DNA of 64,000 bases, taken from the NCBI GenBank assembly GCA_021325635.1, contig JAJPGV010000034.1:60745-124744 (forward strand), given 5' to 3'. The notes below the pieces were generated by a model. The model saw nothing but the letters and a program-made list of their open reading frames with translations. It had not been told where the DNA came from and searched no databases. Numbering within the stretch: the stretch's first letter is position 1; each line of letters opens with the position of its first letter. Position numbers and translations under genes: made by a program. Below, in pieces: positions 44,780 to 63,920 of this stretch. The DNA comes from Chloroflexota bacterium. GTDB lineage: Bacteria; Chloroflexota; JAJPGV01.

Positions 44780-45134
44780 GCCAAGCAGGCCGGGCAATCG
44801 CGGACGCGCCTCAGGCCGTCCGAGGAAAGTCCGAGCTCCACAGGGCAGGATGCTGGGTAACACCCAGTGGGGGTGACCCCAGGAAAGTGCCACAGAAACA
44901 TACCGTCTGCCGCAAGGCAGATAAGGGTGAAACGGCGAGGTAAGAGCTCACCGGCAGCCGGGTGACCGGCTGGCCAGGCAAACCCCATCCGGAGCAAGAC
45001 CGAGCAGGGGCGGGTGGCCCGCCTATGCCCCGGGTTGGTCGCTGGAGACGGACGGTAACGGCCGTCCTAGAGGGATGATTGCCGGTCCGCTGGAAACGGC
45101 GGACTACAGAACTCGGCTTACAGGCCTGCTTGGC
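44780..45134 (+). ncRNA. rnpB: RNase P RNA (bacterial type A)
   Basis: Conserved regions read directly: GAGGAAAGTCCGAGCTCCACAGGGCAGG (CR-I), ATAAGGGTGAAACGGCGAGGTAAGAGCTCACC (CR-II/III), ACAGAACTCGGCTTACAGG (CR-V). P4 shows compensatory changes (GTCCGAGC with CTCGGC). P1 pairs GCCAAGCAGGCC with GGCCTGCTTGGC. Confidence 0.9.
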
Positions 45135-45143
45135 TGCCCTCCG

Positions 45144-58212: not shown

Positions 58213-59139
58213 ATGGCAGTATCGTCGATTGACTCCAGTCTCGCGTCGCTTCTGCAGCTGAGCCAGAATCCGCTGTTCGGGTCATCGAGCAGCCAGGGCC
58301 TGTTGGCGCTGGCGCAGCAGCTGGCCCAAGGTGCAGCGGCGGCTCAAGCAATACCGGCCACGCTGCCGGCGTCACTGATCTCGGCGCCGGCGAACGGTGG
58401 CATCGATGTGACCGGCGGAGGTTCAGTTGTGACGAACGTCGGTGGCATCAGCGGCGTCACCTCCGGCACAGCCACCATCGACGTGACCGCTCTGGCCGCG
58501 TCCGGCCAGCTGACCGGCTCAGCCGCGACGACCAGCGGCGCGACGTTTGCAGGTGGCGGGTCTTTGACCATAACCGGACCCGGAGGCAGCGTCTCCCTCA
58601 GCACTACGGCCGGTGAGACGGTGGGCCAGCTCATACAGGCGATTAACAGCTCCGGCGCCGGGGTGAACGCCGCGCTCAACAGCTCCGGCAAGCTGCAGCT
58701 CACGACCAGCGGCGCTGGGGCGGATCAAGCGATCACGGTCAGCGCGGTCTCCGGGGCGGACATCACGACCACCTTGGGCCTGACCAACGCCAGCGCCAGC
58801 GGCACGAACGCCACCGCGGTCGTGAACGGAACCACGTTCACCGCGGAAAGCGGCAACCAGTTCCATCTTTCCGGCATCGGCGCGGGCTCGCTGCTGGGCC
58901 TTACGTTCAGCGCTGCCAGCACCGGCACCACCAGCGTGACCGTGTCAGCCAGCCGCTCGACGGTGAACGTGCCACCACCGGTTTCGAGCTCACCTGCAAA
59001 CGCCCTGCAGTCCGTGCTGGGTACGAACGATTTCACGCTGGCGTCGCGGCAGCTGGCCAATGCACTGCTGCTGCAGCAGTTCTCGCTGTTTGCCCTGCAG
59101 CAGCAGAGCCAGGCATTCGGCCTCCAGAACCTGCTGTAG
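58213..59139 (+). CDS. FliD-like (flagellar cap protein-like) low-complexity protein, orphan
   Basis: 308 aa, Ser/Thr/Gly/Ala-rich. Central segment ETVGQLIQAINSSGAGVNAALNSSGKLQLTTSGAGADQAITVS resembles the FliD central domain pattern; Gln/Leu-rich helical termini. No other flagellar genes in the window. Confidence 0.45.
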   Translation: MAVSSIDSSLASLLQLSQNPLFGSSSSQGLLALAQQLAQGAAAAQAIPATLPASLISAPANGGIDVTGGGSVVTNVGGISGVTSGTATIDVTALAASGQLTGSAATTSGATFAGGGSLTITGPGGSVSLSTTAGETVGQLIQAINSSGAGVNAALNSSGKLQLTTSGAGADQAITVSAVSGADITTTLGLTNASASGTNATAVVNGTTFTAESGNQFHLSGIGAGSLLGLTFSAASTGTTSVTVSASRSTVNVPPPVSSSPANALQSVLGTNDFTLASRQLANALLLQQFSLFALQQQSQAFGLQNLL

Positions 59140-60055: not shown

Positions 60056-60829
60056 ATGCAGTTCGTTCGCCTGGAGCAGGACGGACCCATTGCCGTCATC
60101 ACTATCGACAACCCGCCGGTCAACGCCATTGCCCAACCCGTGCGCGCTGAGATCCAGGAGGCCTTGCGCAGCGTGGAGGACGACCCGGACACTCGGGTGG
60201 TGATTCTCACCGGCGCCGGCCAGAAAATCTTCGTCGCCGGCGCCGACGTCACCGAATTCCCGCCGCTGAACTACGCTAGCGGCGTCGAGCGGAACAAGCG
60301 CGCGCGCGCTTGGTGGGACTACGTCGCTTCCTTCCCCAAGCCCATCATCGCCGCCATCAACGGCCACGCGCTGGGCGGAGGATTGGAGCTGGCGCTGTGC
60401 TGCGACATCCGCATCGCCTCGCCCAACGCCAGGTTGGGGCTGCCCGAGGTTGGTCTGGGGATCCTGCCCGGCGGAGGCGGCACGCAGCGCCTGGCCAGAC
60501 TCGTAGGCGCAGGCATGGCCAAGCTGATGATCTTTACCGGGGAAGCCATTACCGCGTCCGAAGCGGAGCGGCGCGGCCTGGTCGAGAAGGTGGTGGAACA
60601 GGGGCAGCTGCTCATGGAGTGCCGCGTTCTCGCGGAGAAGATCATCACCAAAGCACCGCTGTCCATCCTTCGAGCCAAGGAAGCCATCAACCGTGGCGCT
60701 GAGGGTGGGTTGGCGCAAGGTCTCGACTATGAAGGCGAATGCTTTGCTCGGCTGATGGACACCGAGGACAAGAACGAAGGCATCGCCGCGTTCCAGGAGA
60801 AACGTCCACCGCTCTGGAAGGGCCGCTGA
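60056..60829 (+). CDS. Enoyl-CoA hydratase/isomerase (crotonase family)
   Basis: 257 aa with crotonase signatures (AINGHALGGGLELALCCDIRIAS ... GLPEVGLGILPGGGGTQRL). Confidence 0.9.
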   Translation: MQFVRLEQDGPIAVITIDNPPVNAIAQPVRAEIQEALRSVEDDPDTRVVILTGAGQKIFVAGADVTEFPPLNYASGVERNKRARAWWDYVASFPKPIIAAINGHALGGGLELALCCDIRIASPNARLGLPEVGLGILPGGGGTQRLARLVGAGMAKLMIFTGEAITASEAERRGLVEKVVEQGQLLMECRVLAEKIITKAPLSILRAKEAINRGAEGGLAQGLDYEGECFARLMDTEDKNEGIAAFQEKRPPLWKGR

Positions 60830-60846
60830 CCGCCTGCGACCGGCGC

Positions 60847-62142
60847 TCAGCCGTGGCTGTGGCTGGCCGCTTCGCGAGGCTCGGACTCTAACGCCGCCCC
60901 CTCGTGCTGCTGAGCGAAGTGCTGACGACAGTGATCCGAGCAAAAGTAGTATGTCCGCCCCGCGATCGTCATCTCGGCCGGAGCCTGCGCGATCTCGACC
61001 TGCATGCCGCAGACAGGATCGTTGGCGTAGCCGGCGCCGCCTCCAAATCGGGCACGGTTGCGTTCCAGCCACAGCAGCGCCAGGAACGCGACCACGGCAA
61101 TCAGGTTCAGCACGGTGGTGTAGCTCCACTGCAGGGGTGGCTCGACGATTCGCAGGCTCGCCTGGGACGGAACCAAACCGGCTGCCTGGAAGACCAGCTC
61201 GGTCAGCAGTCCCGCCATCGACATGACCAGCCAGAACAGCGCCAGCATCCTCAGCGCCAGCTTTCCGCCGTAGTACTTGCGGTAGATCGCCAGCAGGGGG
61301 AAGGAGATCAGATCGGCGAAGATGAAGCTCACCACACCGCCAAAGCTGATGCCACCCGCCCACAGCGCCGCTGCCAGGGGCACGTTGCCCACCGAGCAAA
61401 CAAAGCTGACGATGGCAATGAACGGCCCAATGATGACGTTCTCCAACGACGTCCAAAAGCCGTGTCCCCGCAGAAACAGCGCGTTCCACAGGCTCGTTGG
61501 GACCAGCACAGCCAGGAAGCCGGCCACGACGTAGCCAATCAGCAGCTCCCGGCGCAGCATGGTGACGTCGGCCACGGTGTAACCAGCCGCATCTGACCAG
61601 CCTGCCAGCGAGGTCAGCCTGGTACGCCAGGGGGCGCGGGGTGCGCCGGCCTCGGCACCATGCGCTTCACCCTGGGCCTGCAGGCGCTTTCGCGCGGCCT
61701 CGACGAGGCGCGGCCGGAGGAGCAGTCCCGCGGCGGCGCTCAGCAGCGCGATCATGAGCACCCCACCGAGAAATTCGCTCGCGACGAACTGCCAGCCCAT
61801 CAGTACCCACAGCACGATGCCCAGCTCGATCACCAGGTTGGTGCTGGCAAACATGAACGTCAGCGCCGCCACGAAATCCGCGCCCTTCTGAAACAGCGAC
61901 TTAGCCACGGCCGTAGCTGCATACGAGCACGACGAGGAGATCATGCCGAAGCCGGTCGCCCGGGCAATAGAAGGCAAACTGCGCGCTCCGAGAGCCCGCT
62001 GCATCTCTGCACGGGACACAAACGCCTGCACGGCGCCCGACAGCGTGAAGCCCAGCACCAGGGCCCAGAGCGTGTCCCAGAACATGAAGAAGGCCATCTG
62101 CAGACTGGCCCACACAGCCATTGCCGCGGTCGCAAGTGTCAT
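60847..62142 (-). CDS. DUF318/ArsP-like permease fused to a C-terminal YHS (TRASH-like) metal-binding domain
   Basis: 431 aa. Two-repeat permease architecture with a Cys-containing motif (GMISSSCSYAATA); C-terminal YHS-type motif DPVCGMQV...GRTYYFCSDHC. Confidence 0.75.
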   Translation of the reverse strand: MTLATAAMAVWASLQMAFFMFWDTLWALVLGFTLSGAVQAFVSRAEMQRALGARSLPSIARATGFGMISSSCSYAATAVAKSLFQKGADFVAALTFMFASTNLVIELGIVLWVLMGWQFVASEFLGGVLMIALLSAAAGLLLRPRLVEAARKRLQAQGEAHGAEAGAPRAPWRTRLTSLAGWSDAAGYTVADVTMLRRELLIGYVVAGFLAVLVPTSLWNALFLRGHGFWTSLENVIIGPFIAIVSFVCSVGNVPLAAALWAGGISFGGVVSFIFADLISFPLLAIYRKYYGGKLALRMLALFWLVMSMAGLLTELVFQAAGLVPSQASLRIVEPPLQWSYTTVLNLIAVVAFLALLWLERNRARFGGGAGYANDPVCGMQVEIAQAPAEMTIAGRTYYFCSDHCRQHFAQQHEGAALESEPREAASHSHG

Positions 62143-62155
62143 GTTCCCGGCTCGA

Positions 62156-62419
62156 CTACCTCCTCGATATCTCGAAGATGTCGGCCAGCTCTCGTATCGT
62201 GTCCTGGCCCCGATCGGGCAGGAGCCGTTCCTGGACGCAGCCGCTCAAATGGCCCTGCAGAAGGACGCTCTCGAGCTTCTTGATAGCTCGTTCCACGGCG
62301 TAGGTCTGCTTGAGGATGTCGACGCAGTATTGGTCTTCATCGACCATGCGCCGTATGCCCTTGAGGTGCCCTTCGATGGTGGCTAGGCGGTTCAGGACGT
62401 CACGCTTGTTCGCCTGCAT
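62156..62419 (-). CDS. csoR: CsoR/RcnR family metal-sensing transcriptional repressor
   Basis: 87 aa from the second Met ([12 protein letters not shown]). CsoR-like sequence with Cys (YCVDIL) and His-x3-Cys (GHLSGC) at positions matching the Cu(I)-sensing CsoR triad. Confidence 0.8.
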
Positions 62420-62436
62420 ACCCGTACTGTAGCGCG

Positions 62437-62461
62437 TACCCACCCCCCTGGGGAGGGGGTA
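62437..62461. promoter_or_regulatory. GC-rich pseudo-palindrome, candidate CsoR operator
   Basis: TACCCACCCCCCTGGGGAGGGGGTA, 18 nt upstream of the csoR start. Resembles the TACCC...GGGGTA operators described for CsoR-family repressors. Confidence 0.5.
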
Positions 62462-62553
62462 AGCGCCCTGGAAGCTCGGCCGGGTTTAGTATTGGGTCGA
62501 TCCCGGTGCAGGCTGCACTCAGCCACGGCCTGCACCAGTCGAGGAAGACGACA

Positions 62554-63057
62554 GTGACAGAAACGCTGCCCATCAGCGTCACGGTGAATGGCACCGAATA
62601 CCGGTACGAAGTCGAGCCCCGCCTCCTGCTGGTGCATTACATCAGGGACATCCTCAACCTCACCGGCACCCATGTGGGCTGTGATACGAGTAACTGCGGC
62701 GCCTGCACGGTGCTGCTCGACAACCGCTCGGTGAAATCGTGCACGCTGCTGGCCGTGCAGGCTGACGGCTGTGACGTCACCACCATCGAGGGTCTGGCCG
62801 GGGAAGAGGGGCTCCACCCGGTGCAGCGGGGCTTCTGGGAAGAGCATGGGCTGCAGTGCGGCTACTGCACCCCCGGCATGATCCTCTCGGCCGTGCAGCT
62901 GCTGCAGCGCAACCCGGAGCCCACGGACGACGAGATCCGCTCCGGAATCGAGGGCAACTTATGCCGCTGCACCGGCTACCAGAACATCGTCAACGCTATT
63001 CGCTGGGCGGCAGAGCGCCTGCGTGAAGCCGAAGCCAGCCAGACGGCAAAGCAGTGA
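62554..63057 (+). CDS. coxS: Molybdo-enzyme small subunit, [2Fe-2S]-binding (CO dehydrogenase CoxS-like)
   Basis: Two 2Fe-2S motifs ([11 protein letters not shown] and CGYCTPGM / CRCTGY); start taken as GTG 62554 after GAGGAAG. Confidence 0.85.
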
Positions 63058-63920
63058 TTCCCCCTGAATTTGGCTACCGCCGCCCGGCGTCTCTGGCGGA
63101 GGCCGTCGCGATGCTGGAGGGCGACGAGGAGGCCAAGATCCTGGCCGGCGGGCACAGCCTGATCCCGCTCCTCAAGCTGCGCCTGGTCCAGCCCTCGCAG
63201 CTGGTGGACATTGCCCGCCTGCCCGGCTTGAGCTACGTGCGCGAGGACAACGGGGCCATAGCCGTTGGCGCGATGACCACCCACTTCGACGTCGAACGCT
63301 CTGGCCTGCTGATGGACGCGCTTCCCCTGCTGCCCTTGACCGCAGCGACCATCGGCGACGTGCAGGTACGCAATCGAGGCACGATCGGAGGCTCCTTGGC
63401 CCACGCCGATCCGGCCGCCGATCTGGGTGCGGCCGCACTGGCGCTGGGGGCCGAATTCGTCGCCGAGGGCCCCGCCGGCCGGCGGGCTATCCCGGCGCAA
63501 GCCTTCTTCGTTGACGTTCTCACGACGGCGCTTGAACCGGCGGAGGTCGTCGTCGAGATCCGCTTTCCCAAGCCCGCCGGCCGTGTGGGCGCGGATTACC
63601 TCAAGTTCAACCACCGAGCGATCGACTGGGCCATCGTCGGTATCGCCAGCTGGCTGGTTTTCGACGGCGACGTTGTCTCGGATGCCGCGGTTGGGCTTAC
63701 CGCCCTGGGCAGCACGCCGCTCCGGGCCACCGGAGTCGAACAGCTGCTGCGGGGGCAGAAGTGGTCACGGGATCTAGCCCAGGCCGCGGCTCAACGAGCG
63801 TCGGACGGGCTCGATCCCTTGAGCGACCGCCACGGCAGCGCTGCGTACCGACTGCACCTGGCACGGGTGCTCACCGAGCGCAGCCTGATCGCAGCGGCCG
63901 CTCGGGCCGGCCAGCAGTAG
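63054..63920 (+). CDS. coxM: Molybdo-enzyme medium subunit, FAD-binding (CO dehydrogenase CoxM-like)
   Basis: 288 aa with FAD-binding signature ([15 protein letters not shown]) and CoxM-like sequence; GTGA overlap with the coxS stop. Confidence 0.85.

Follow-up and report, generated by a model that had tools for sequence, protein, structure and literature searches.

What does a copper-sensing repressor of the CsoR type control where genes for a P-type ATPase are missing? The question is raised by a csoR gene in a 64,000-nucleotide (nt) stretch of contig JAJPGV010000034.1 (positions 60,745 to 124,744 of the forward strand; assembly GCA_021325635.1) from a Chloroflexota bacterium. This whole stretch is referred to below as the window, and positions are counted from its first letter. 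The textbook CsoR regulon consists of CopZ and CopA. Here, an operator, csoR and a gene for a permease with a C-terminal YHS domain follow one another on the minus strand, and no P-type ATPase, multicopper oxidase or HMA motif was found within the 64-kb window. The core of a preliminary description of this locus, that CsoR controls a permease-YHS fusion rather than a P-type ATPase, is upheld. Regulation of the unit by a copper-type CsoR is highly probable. We also favor, with less assurance, the reading that the unit is a self-contained copper-detoxification operon whose permease exports copper without ATP.

The repressor gene is the first of the operon. Its open reading frame (ORF) extends from 62156 to 62443 on the minus strand, and the coding sequence likely occupies 62156 to 62419. 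Translation probably begins at the ATG at 62419, for a protein of 87 amino acids (aa), and the gene was called independently at the same length, 87 aa, in another assembly of this DNA. Only 13 nt separate the csoR stop codon from the ATG of the second gene, which is located at 60847 to 62142 on the same strand and encodes a protein of 431 aa. Residues 1-361 of this protein (61060 to 62142) form a membrane domain of the ArsP_1/DUF318 type, and residues 372-419 (60886 to 61029) form a YHS/TRASH domain (PF04945).

The predicted repressor is a member of the CsoR/RcnR family (PF02583, DUF156; 87.4 bits against a cutoff of 22.8, E 8e-25). It has the Cys and His-x3-Cys pattern that had been reported for it, and it lies upstream of, and co-oriented with, the permease gene. 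Its closest solved relative is the Mycobacterium tuberculosis CsoR (2hh7, E 2.6e-18). In the ungapped alignment, Cys32, His57 and Cys61 correspond to the Cu(I) ligands C36, H61 and C65, so that the x-C-H-C fingerprint is complete. Tyr31 and Glu77 align to Y35 and E81, the second-shell residues that, from studies of the M. tuberculosis protein, couple Cu(I) binding to release of DNA. By its ligand set, the protein is predicted to be a Cu(I)-type sensor.

Other sensors of the same Pfam family have different fingerprints: RcnR has His at the "W" and "Z" positions, InrS has H-C-H-C, and FrmR has Pro2-Cys-His without the second Cys. A nickel/cobalt sensor of the RcnR or InrS type was rejected, as the W position of the window protein is either vacant or occupied by a residue other than His, whichever start codon is used, and Z is Cys. 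Scores for RcnR (30.5 bits against 138) and for the formaldehyde sensor FrmR (27.6 against 133) are far below the NCBIfam cutoffs, and PDB matches to InrS and FrmR are weaker than those to CsoRs. Assignment to a nickel- or formaldehyde-sensing subgroup without copper ligands, which the preliminary description had named as grounds for abandoning its reading, does not apply, given the full copper ligand set. The top NCBIfam match is RicR (NF052430), at 62 bits against a cutoff of 175; thus the protein is not a member of that family.

The candidate operator, TACCCACCCCCCTGGGGAGGGGGTA, is of a long form and is located at 62437 to 62461, leaving 17 nt between it and the csoR ATG (18 nt in the preliminary description). 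Its arms flank a central T and are complementary at ten of 12 positions; two interrupted G/C tracts lie inside a TAC/GTA dyad. Such a dyad around G-tracts is the hallmark of CsoR operators in Streptomyces lividans, Bacillus subtilis and others (PMC3902906). The window palindrome has both elements, as do the operators of the Cu(I)-sensing CsoR subgroup, and it is similar to the operator of the M. tuberculosis cso operon, GTAGCCCACCCCCAGTGGGGTGGGATAC (PMC10601412). The hexamer TACAGT at 62426 to 62431 (minus strand), 6 nt before the csoR ATG, is a candidate -10 element, and no Shine-Dalgarno sequence precedes that ATG. The position of the hexamer suggests that the csoR mRNA may be leaderless, in which case the operator would lie over the spacer and the -35 region. 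No RNA family was found by Rfam in 60700-62700.

Could the palindrome be something other than an operator, either a GC-rich inverted repeat that arose by chance or a part of the divergent promoter on its other side, with csoR and the permease gene constitutive or regulated from elsewhere? As a bare inverted repeat it is not beyond chance: 25-nt palindromes with at least 10 of 12 pairs occur eight times in the window, compared with 6.1 ± 2.5 times in shuffled sequences. It was not picked up by a repeat search of the window with a 6-nt seed, and was confirmed by hand and with a script. The lack of a consensus promoter and a spacing unlike that of the common N5 box (both discussed below) point in the same direction. 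On the other hand, the arrangement TACCC-N15-GGGTA occurs once in the window where 0.07 occurrences are expected; no second copy was found in the window at up to three mismatches. The real support for the putative operator is comparison across related operons.

Permease-YHS fusions are abundant, with more than 8000 database proteins at E <1e-10. The best 120 relatives all have both domains, with one to three YHS/TRASH copies and often two or three. We examined 160 loci, of which 80 are from genomes of Acidimicrobiia, other Actinomycetota, Dormibacterota and Chloroflexota and 80 are from metagenomes. A CsoR homologue is encoded in 54 of the genome loci. It is directly upstream of and co-oriented with the permease gene in 49 and directly downstream in four loci of Dormibacteria; in the remaining locus it is on the opposite strand at a distance of about 2 kb. 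Among the metagenome loci 34 have a CsoR homologue; in some of these the two genes are divergent and the box lies between them. The pair is therefore present in 88 of 160 loci overall, and the description of the permease-YHS fusion as unusual holds only relative to the textbook CopZ/CopA regulon. The motif YC...H-x3-C is kept in every CsoR homologue recovered from the genome loci. A P-type ATPase is encoded within 4 kb in just three of the 80 genome loci; normally, the csoR-permease unit is a stand-alone two-gene module.

The box is conserved together with the genes. Of 53 genome loci, 41 have a strict TACC(C)-N-(G)GGTA site in the 150 nt upstream of csoR; the remaining sequence of the loci contains 11 such sites in 446 kb. 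In most of the other genome loci the box departs from this pattern at one or two positions, bringing equivalent boxes in the same position to about 50 of 53, and metagenome loci have them also. Where the gene order is swapped (four loci), the box is upstream of the permease gene, at what is then the operon promoter. In four loci (L127, L132, L134 and L135) csoR and the permease gene are divergent rather than co-oriented; a strict box, TACCCCGGGGGGGTA, is located 2 nt before the permease start in L134 and L135, and the strict search was negative in L127 and L132. The concern that the palindrome might not recur upstream of orthologous operons is thus settled in its favor, as the same type of box is found there. 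Together with the movement of the box with the operon promoter and the long boxes described next, this conservation makes it very improbable that the palindrome is a chance repeat or belongs to the divergent promoter.

Most loci have a short box, TACCC-N5-GGGTA, of the S. lividans type (TAC-N9-GTA). Long G-tract boxes like that of the window were found in its two closest csoR-bearing relatives, in both cases beside upstream genes that differ from those of the window. In L086, where the permease is 70% identical to that of the window, the box is TACCCCACCCCGGGTGGGGTGCTA. In L125 (metagenome contig Ga0102924_1058628), the closest csoR-bearing relative with a permease 72% identical, it is CTACCCCACGCCAGGTGGGGGTGGGAT. 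The CsoR homologue of the latter (L125:870-1340) reads NHLHTGF, in which the second Cu(I)-ligand Cys is replaced by Gly, and the long box is retained upstream. The substitution may reflect either a variant sensor or an error in sequencing.

The length of the operator appears to be reflected in the repressor. A helix-alpha1 signature RL(A/K)T...(E/R)GH is found in the CsoR proteins of the window (62380-62419), L086 (2125-2481), L125 and M. tuberculosis, all of which have long operators. All short-box repressors of the genome set (about 50 loci) instead have RL[RK]R...EGQ or similar. Co-variation of signature and operator length, which appears from four sequences of the long type, is plausible because the RLXR motif has been assigned to contacts at the GTA dyad (PMC3902906).

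What, then, does the repressor control? The permease belongs to the ArsP_1/DUF318 family (PF03773; 196.1 bits over residues 19-315, cutoff 32.3) and its C-terminal part to the YHS family (37.1 bits, cutoff 30.3). Thus the proposed assignment of both domains by hidden Markov models, when run, gave scores above the cutoffs in each case. The YHS domain has the ligand set Asp plus Cys-x(n)-Cys-x3-Cys, and these residues, Asp375, Cys378, Cys401 and Cys405, are invariant. The protein contains just five cysteines, all of them invariant. Besides the three in the YHS domain there are two in the membrane domain: Cys72, within SSSCSYA (codon 61927-61929), and Cys249, within SFVCSVGNVPLAAALW (codon 61396-61398).

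No solved structure is related by sequence to the permease. An AlphaFold2 model built from 61 sequences is confident (predicted local distance difference test, pLDDT, 89.7; predicted template modeling score, pTM, 0.86), and has an elevator-type fold closest to that of the arsenite exporter ArsB, with which sequence identity is about 10%. The modeled fold is that of the elevator-type carriers of the ion-transporter superfamily (ArsB, DASS, TRAP-DctM and AbgT), which is characterized by two re-entrant helical hairpins. Each half of the modeled protein contains one short helix pair (56-68/73-85 and 229-246/250-262), with Cys72 at the turn of the first and Cys249 at the turn of the second; we read these pairs as the probable re-entrant hairpins. 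The central loop contains eight Lys and Arg residues, and NRARF follows the last helix. From this positive-inside pattern, the YHS domain is predicted to face the cytoplasm. In the adenylyl cyclase of Mycobacterium phlei a YHS domain mediates activation by micromolar copper, and a ligand set of Asp and three Cys has been proposed (PMC4626032).

A precedent for control of such a permease by a CsoR-family repressor exists in mycobacteria. In M. tuberculosis, the CsoR paralogue RicR acts via a palindromic motif to repress a regulon that includes Rv2963, a putative permease gene (PMC3944814). Homologues of the window permease that lack YHS are widespread in mycobacteria; those compared here are 47-48% identical (E 1e-94) and have RicR/CsoR boxes. 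One of these, from Mycobacterium riyadhense (P0201; 406 aa), is 48% identical to the membrane domain of the window protein (E 1e-94) and shares both Cys motifs. Its box, ATATACCCCCGTGGGGTATAT, abuts its start and is the sole such site in 11 kb. The neighboring genes encode an ACT/formyltransferase (purU-like), a CTP-transferase-like (coaD-like) protein, a putative methyltransferase and a pyruvate-carboxylase-like protein. We take this gene order to be that of Rv2963-Rv2967c, which makes P0201 the putative orthologue of Rv2963. It is strongly suggested that Rv2963 belongs to the family of the window permease. Rv2963 was absent among the 120 best relatives of a further homologue, from a Mycobacterium aubagnense plasmid. 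This homologue is 47% identical to the window permease and is transcribed divergently from a multicopper oxidase gene, with the box ATATACCCCAATGGGGTATAT between them. The plasmid (pJCM15296; L091:1-6290) carries a copper island that encodes a heavy-metal P-type ATPase, an MPT63-family protein, the multicopper oxidase and the YHS-less permease, and its box is a perfect ATATACCCCAATGGGGTATAT.

We envisage that at low copper apo-CsoR tetramers would occupy 62437-62461, upstream of and probably overlapping the promoter, and repress the csoR-permease transcript. Rising cytoplasmic Cu(I) would be bound by Cys32, His57' and Cys61', a change relayed by Tyr31 and Glu77 would take CsoR off the DNA, and csoR and the permease gene would then be co-transcribed. 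The permease would act as an elevator-type secondary carrier of the ArsP_1/DUF318 family that is not driven by ATP. Its cytoplasmic YHS domain, with Asp and three Cys, would capture Cu(I) and pass it to a thiolate site formed by Cys72 and Cys249, from which it would leave the cytoplasm.

The direction of transport could be the reverse. Under the same regulation, the permease might import or redistribute copper, for cuproenzyme supply or sequestration, and export none. The transposon mutant of Rv2963 has no robust copper phenotype and was slightly, not reproducibly, more resistant to copper (PMC3944814), opposite to the prediction for loss of an exporter. Elevator-type carriers include many importers (VcINDY, TRAP, CNT), and the genes divergent from csoR in the window encode members of a family that includes the Mo-Cu CO dehydrogenase. 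However, the association with these neighbors is not conserved in relatives, and a gene that a Cu(I) sensor releases from repression when copper is high would be unlikely to encode an importer. Also, the relatives that have been studied or predicted are all assigned to efflux (ArsP, SO_0444, SaoE by homology and ArsB by fold), and a Cys3-Asp YHS domain on the predicted cytoplasmic side suits capture of metal from the cytoplasm. We consider import quite unlikely.

The substrate could also be another thiophile, such as Ag(I), Zn/Cd, an organoarsenical or other organometal, or a sulfur species, with copper serving only as the signal or with CsoR sensing something else. ArsP, after which the family is named, is an exporter of organoarsenicals, and SO_0444 acts on Cu as well as Zn. 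Some close homologues have ArsR regulators, and cassettes of ArsR with a COG0701 permease occur on insertion sequences (PMC6305408). Members of the CsoR family also sense persulfide or control sulfur oxidation (PMC10318464), and the CsoR homologue of L125 lacks the second Cys. The window CsoR, in contrast, has the full C-H-C set with Tyr and Glu, rather than the C-x-C of persulfide sensors, and its operator is of the copper-CsoR type. The settings of the mycobacterial homologues are copper-related (the RicR regulon, a multicopper oxidase, a Cu-type ATPase), and the window permease lacks the paired-cysteine motif of ArsP, SO_0444 and SaoE. A substrate other than copper is therefore unlikely in our estimation.

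Several further observations, along with the phenotype of the Rv2963 mutant, weigh against a copper-exporting operon under CsoR control. A promoter scan found no consensus sigma-70 promoter at csoR, and a terminator scan was likewise uninformative. The spacing of the window box, TAC-N19-GTA, compares with N9 in most relatives, so that the binding geometry is less precedented. The permease is far below the cutoff for the SO_0444 family (NF033936; 57.2 bits against 300), its SSSCSYA lacking the second Cys of CSC. It is also far below that for SaoE (NF040736; 64.2 bits against 325), and no genes for the SAO ABC importer are nearby; membership in both families was rejected. The window permease has CSY where SO_0444, SaoE and ArsP have the paired-cysteine motif (CSC), defined together with the efflux roles of ArsP and SaoE in bioRxiv 10.1101/2022.07.06.499078. 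The nearest syntenic relatives (P0017 and P0005; L082:1071-5272 and L085) keep the MDMPI_N and enoyl-CoA hydratase genes, but csoR and the box are absent. In three loci (L026:3600-3986, L070:40-279 and L074:3290-3733), an ArsR/SmtB regulator (PF01022) is encoded upstream of the permease-YHS gene in the place of CsoR. These ArsR-paired members and the relatives without csoR and box indicate that specificity and regulation vary within the family. Metal sensors of more than one kind thus seem to control members of the family, and csoR was gained or lost recently in the lineage of the L082 and L085 relatives. In these two loci, a pair resembling an extracytoplasmic function (ECF) sigma and anti-sigma factor is encoded downstream of the permease gene.

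Copper export from the cytoplasm, without ATP, is still the function that we favor for the window operon. If it is correct, how general might it be? To our knowledge, copper export across the bacterial inner membrane has been credited almost wholly to P1B-type ATPases. We suggest tentatively, as a proposal that falls a little short of probable, that ArsP_1 permeases with SSSCSYA and SFVCSxGNVPLAA, with or without YHS, are widespread and unrecognized proton- or ion-coupled elevator Cu(I) exporters. They would be the principal CsoR-controlled means of copper efflux in Chloroflexota, Acidimicrobiia and Dormibacterota, acting with neither a P-type ATPase nor CopZ, would explain Rv2963, and their YHS domain would play the role of the N-terminal metal-binding domains of CopA.

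If so, a CsoR-controlled secondary carrier would represent a second route of copper export, common in soil phyla. The arrangement of two membrane cysteines at the turns of helix pairs with a cytoplasmic YHS domain provides a testable hypothesis for the family. It also points to a possible function for Rv2963, which is regulated by copper in M. tuberculosis and whose mutant has an unexplained phenotype. Co-variation of the alpha1 signature with operator length could aid in predicting CsoR regulons from sequence. CsoR, its operators and a DUF318 permease regulated by a CsoR-family protein are already known. Our literature search found no paper on CsoR, YHS and a permease together, and none that ties Rv2963 to DUF318, COG0701 or ArsP. 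Within that literature, the adjacent, autoregulated csoR-permease operon, the YHS fusion, its wide distribution, and the elevator-type fold with two membrane cysteines at helix-pair turns appear to be undescribed.

Across the intergenic region, two divergent plus-strand genes encode a 2Fe-2S subunit (window 62506-63057) and a flavin adenine dinucleotide (FAD) subunit (63054-63920) of the xanthine dehydrogenase/CO dehydrogenase family. The preliminary description had called these genes coxSM. The subunit types, the family and the divergent arrangement agree with that description, but a "cox" identity goes beyond the evidence. The top NCBIfam matches are the glyceraldehyde dehydrogenase gamma and beta subunits, both below the cutoff. 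A conserved functional link between these genes and the csoR-permease unit was rejected, as relatives have other neighbors. The gene for the large subunit lies past the end of the window, and exact-sequence searches with the CoxM-like protein, by which that subunit might have been reached, gave no match. The true start of the 2Fe-2S gene is probably a GTG at 62554, preceded by GAGGAAG. A -10-like TAGTAT at 62489-62494 would set the CsoR box next to the -35 region of this divergent promoter. Three genes from the operon, the plus strand at 58213-59139 contains an ORF of 308 aa rich in Gly, Ser, Thr and Ala, for which a Flagellin_IN (PF07196) match is recorded on the other assembly. A 25-nt G-tract palindrome at 44855, one of the eight counted above, was considered as a second CsoR-type site and ruled out, since it is a helix of the bacterial class A RNase P RNA encoded at 44782-45136 on the plus strand (Rfam RF00010, 286 bits).

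How does this unit compare with known systems? The M. tuberculosis cso operon (csoR-Rv0968-ctpV-Rv0970) is similar in the Cu(I) ligands and second shell of its repressor, in the alpha1 signature RLxT...G-H, in its long G-tract operator and in having the repressor as the first gene. It differs in its effector, which is the P1B-type ATPase CtpV rather than a secondary permease with YHS, and in the operator ends, which are GTA...TAC in M. tuberculosis (PMC3902906) and TAC...GTA in the window. The type-2 operator of S. lividans CsoR, ATATACCCCTNAGGGGTATAT, shares the TAC/GTA dyad around G-tracts, and two tetramers of that repressor bind per site (PMC3902906). In S. lividans, however, the spacing is TAC-N9-GTA rather than N19, and the targets are copZA operons; the alpha1 signature of the window protein is RLAT...EGH. 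A type-2 box such as ATATACCCCTNAGGGGTATAT with an RL[RK]R...EGQ repressor is exactly the combination found in most csoR-permease loci.

The RicR/Rv2963 system probably has the same three elements as the window, a CsoR-family repressor, an ArsP_1-family permease and a palindromic box. The mycobacterial permeases compared here lack YHS, the regulator gene is not adjacent and the box is of the short N5 type; the M. riyadhense protein ends in a His-rich tail in place of YHS. SO_0444 of Shewanella oneidensis, for which protection against Cu and Zn is supported genetically by fitness and complementation and which is paired with a metal-sensing regulator (PMC3219624), also belongs to the ArsP_1/DUF318 superfamily. 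Unlike the window unit, its regulator is a MerR/ZntR-type activator, its motif is CSC (sometimes USC) rather than CSY, and no YHS domain has been reported for it. The comparison with ArsP and ArsB is limited in that neither the regulator nor the context in the window indicates arsenic. The YHS/TRASH domains of Cu-ATPases and of the M. phlei adenylyl cyclase are, like that of the window, small domains with Asp and three Cys, whereas in the window this domain forms the C-terminal part of a secondary carrier.

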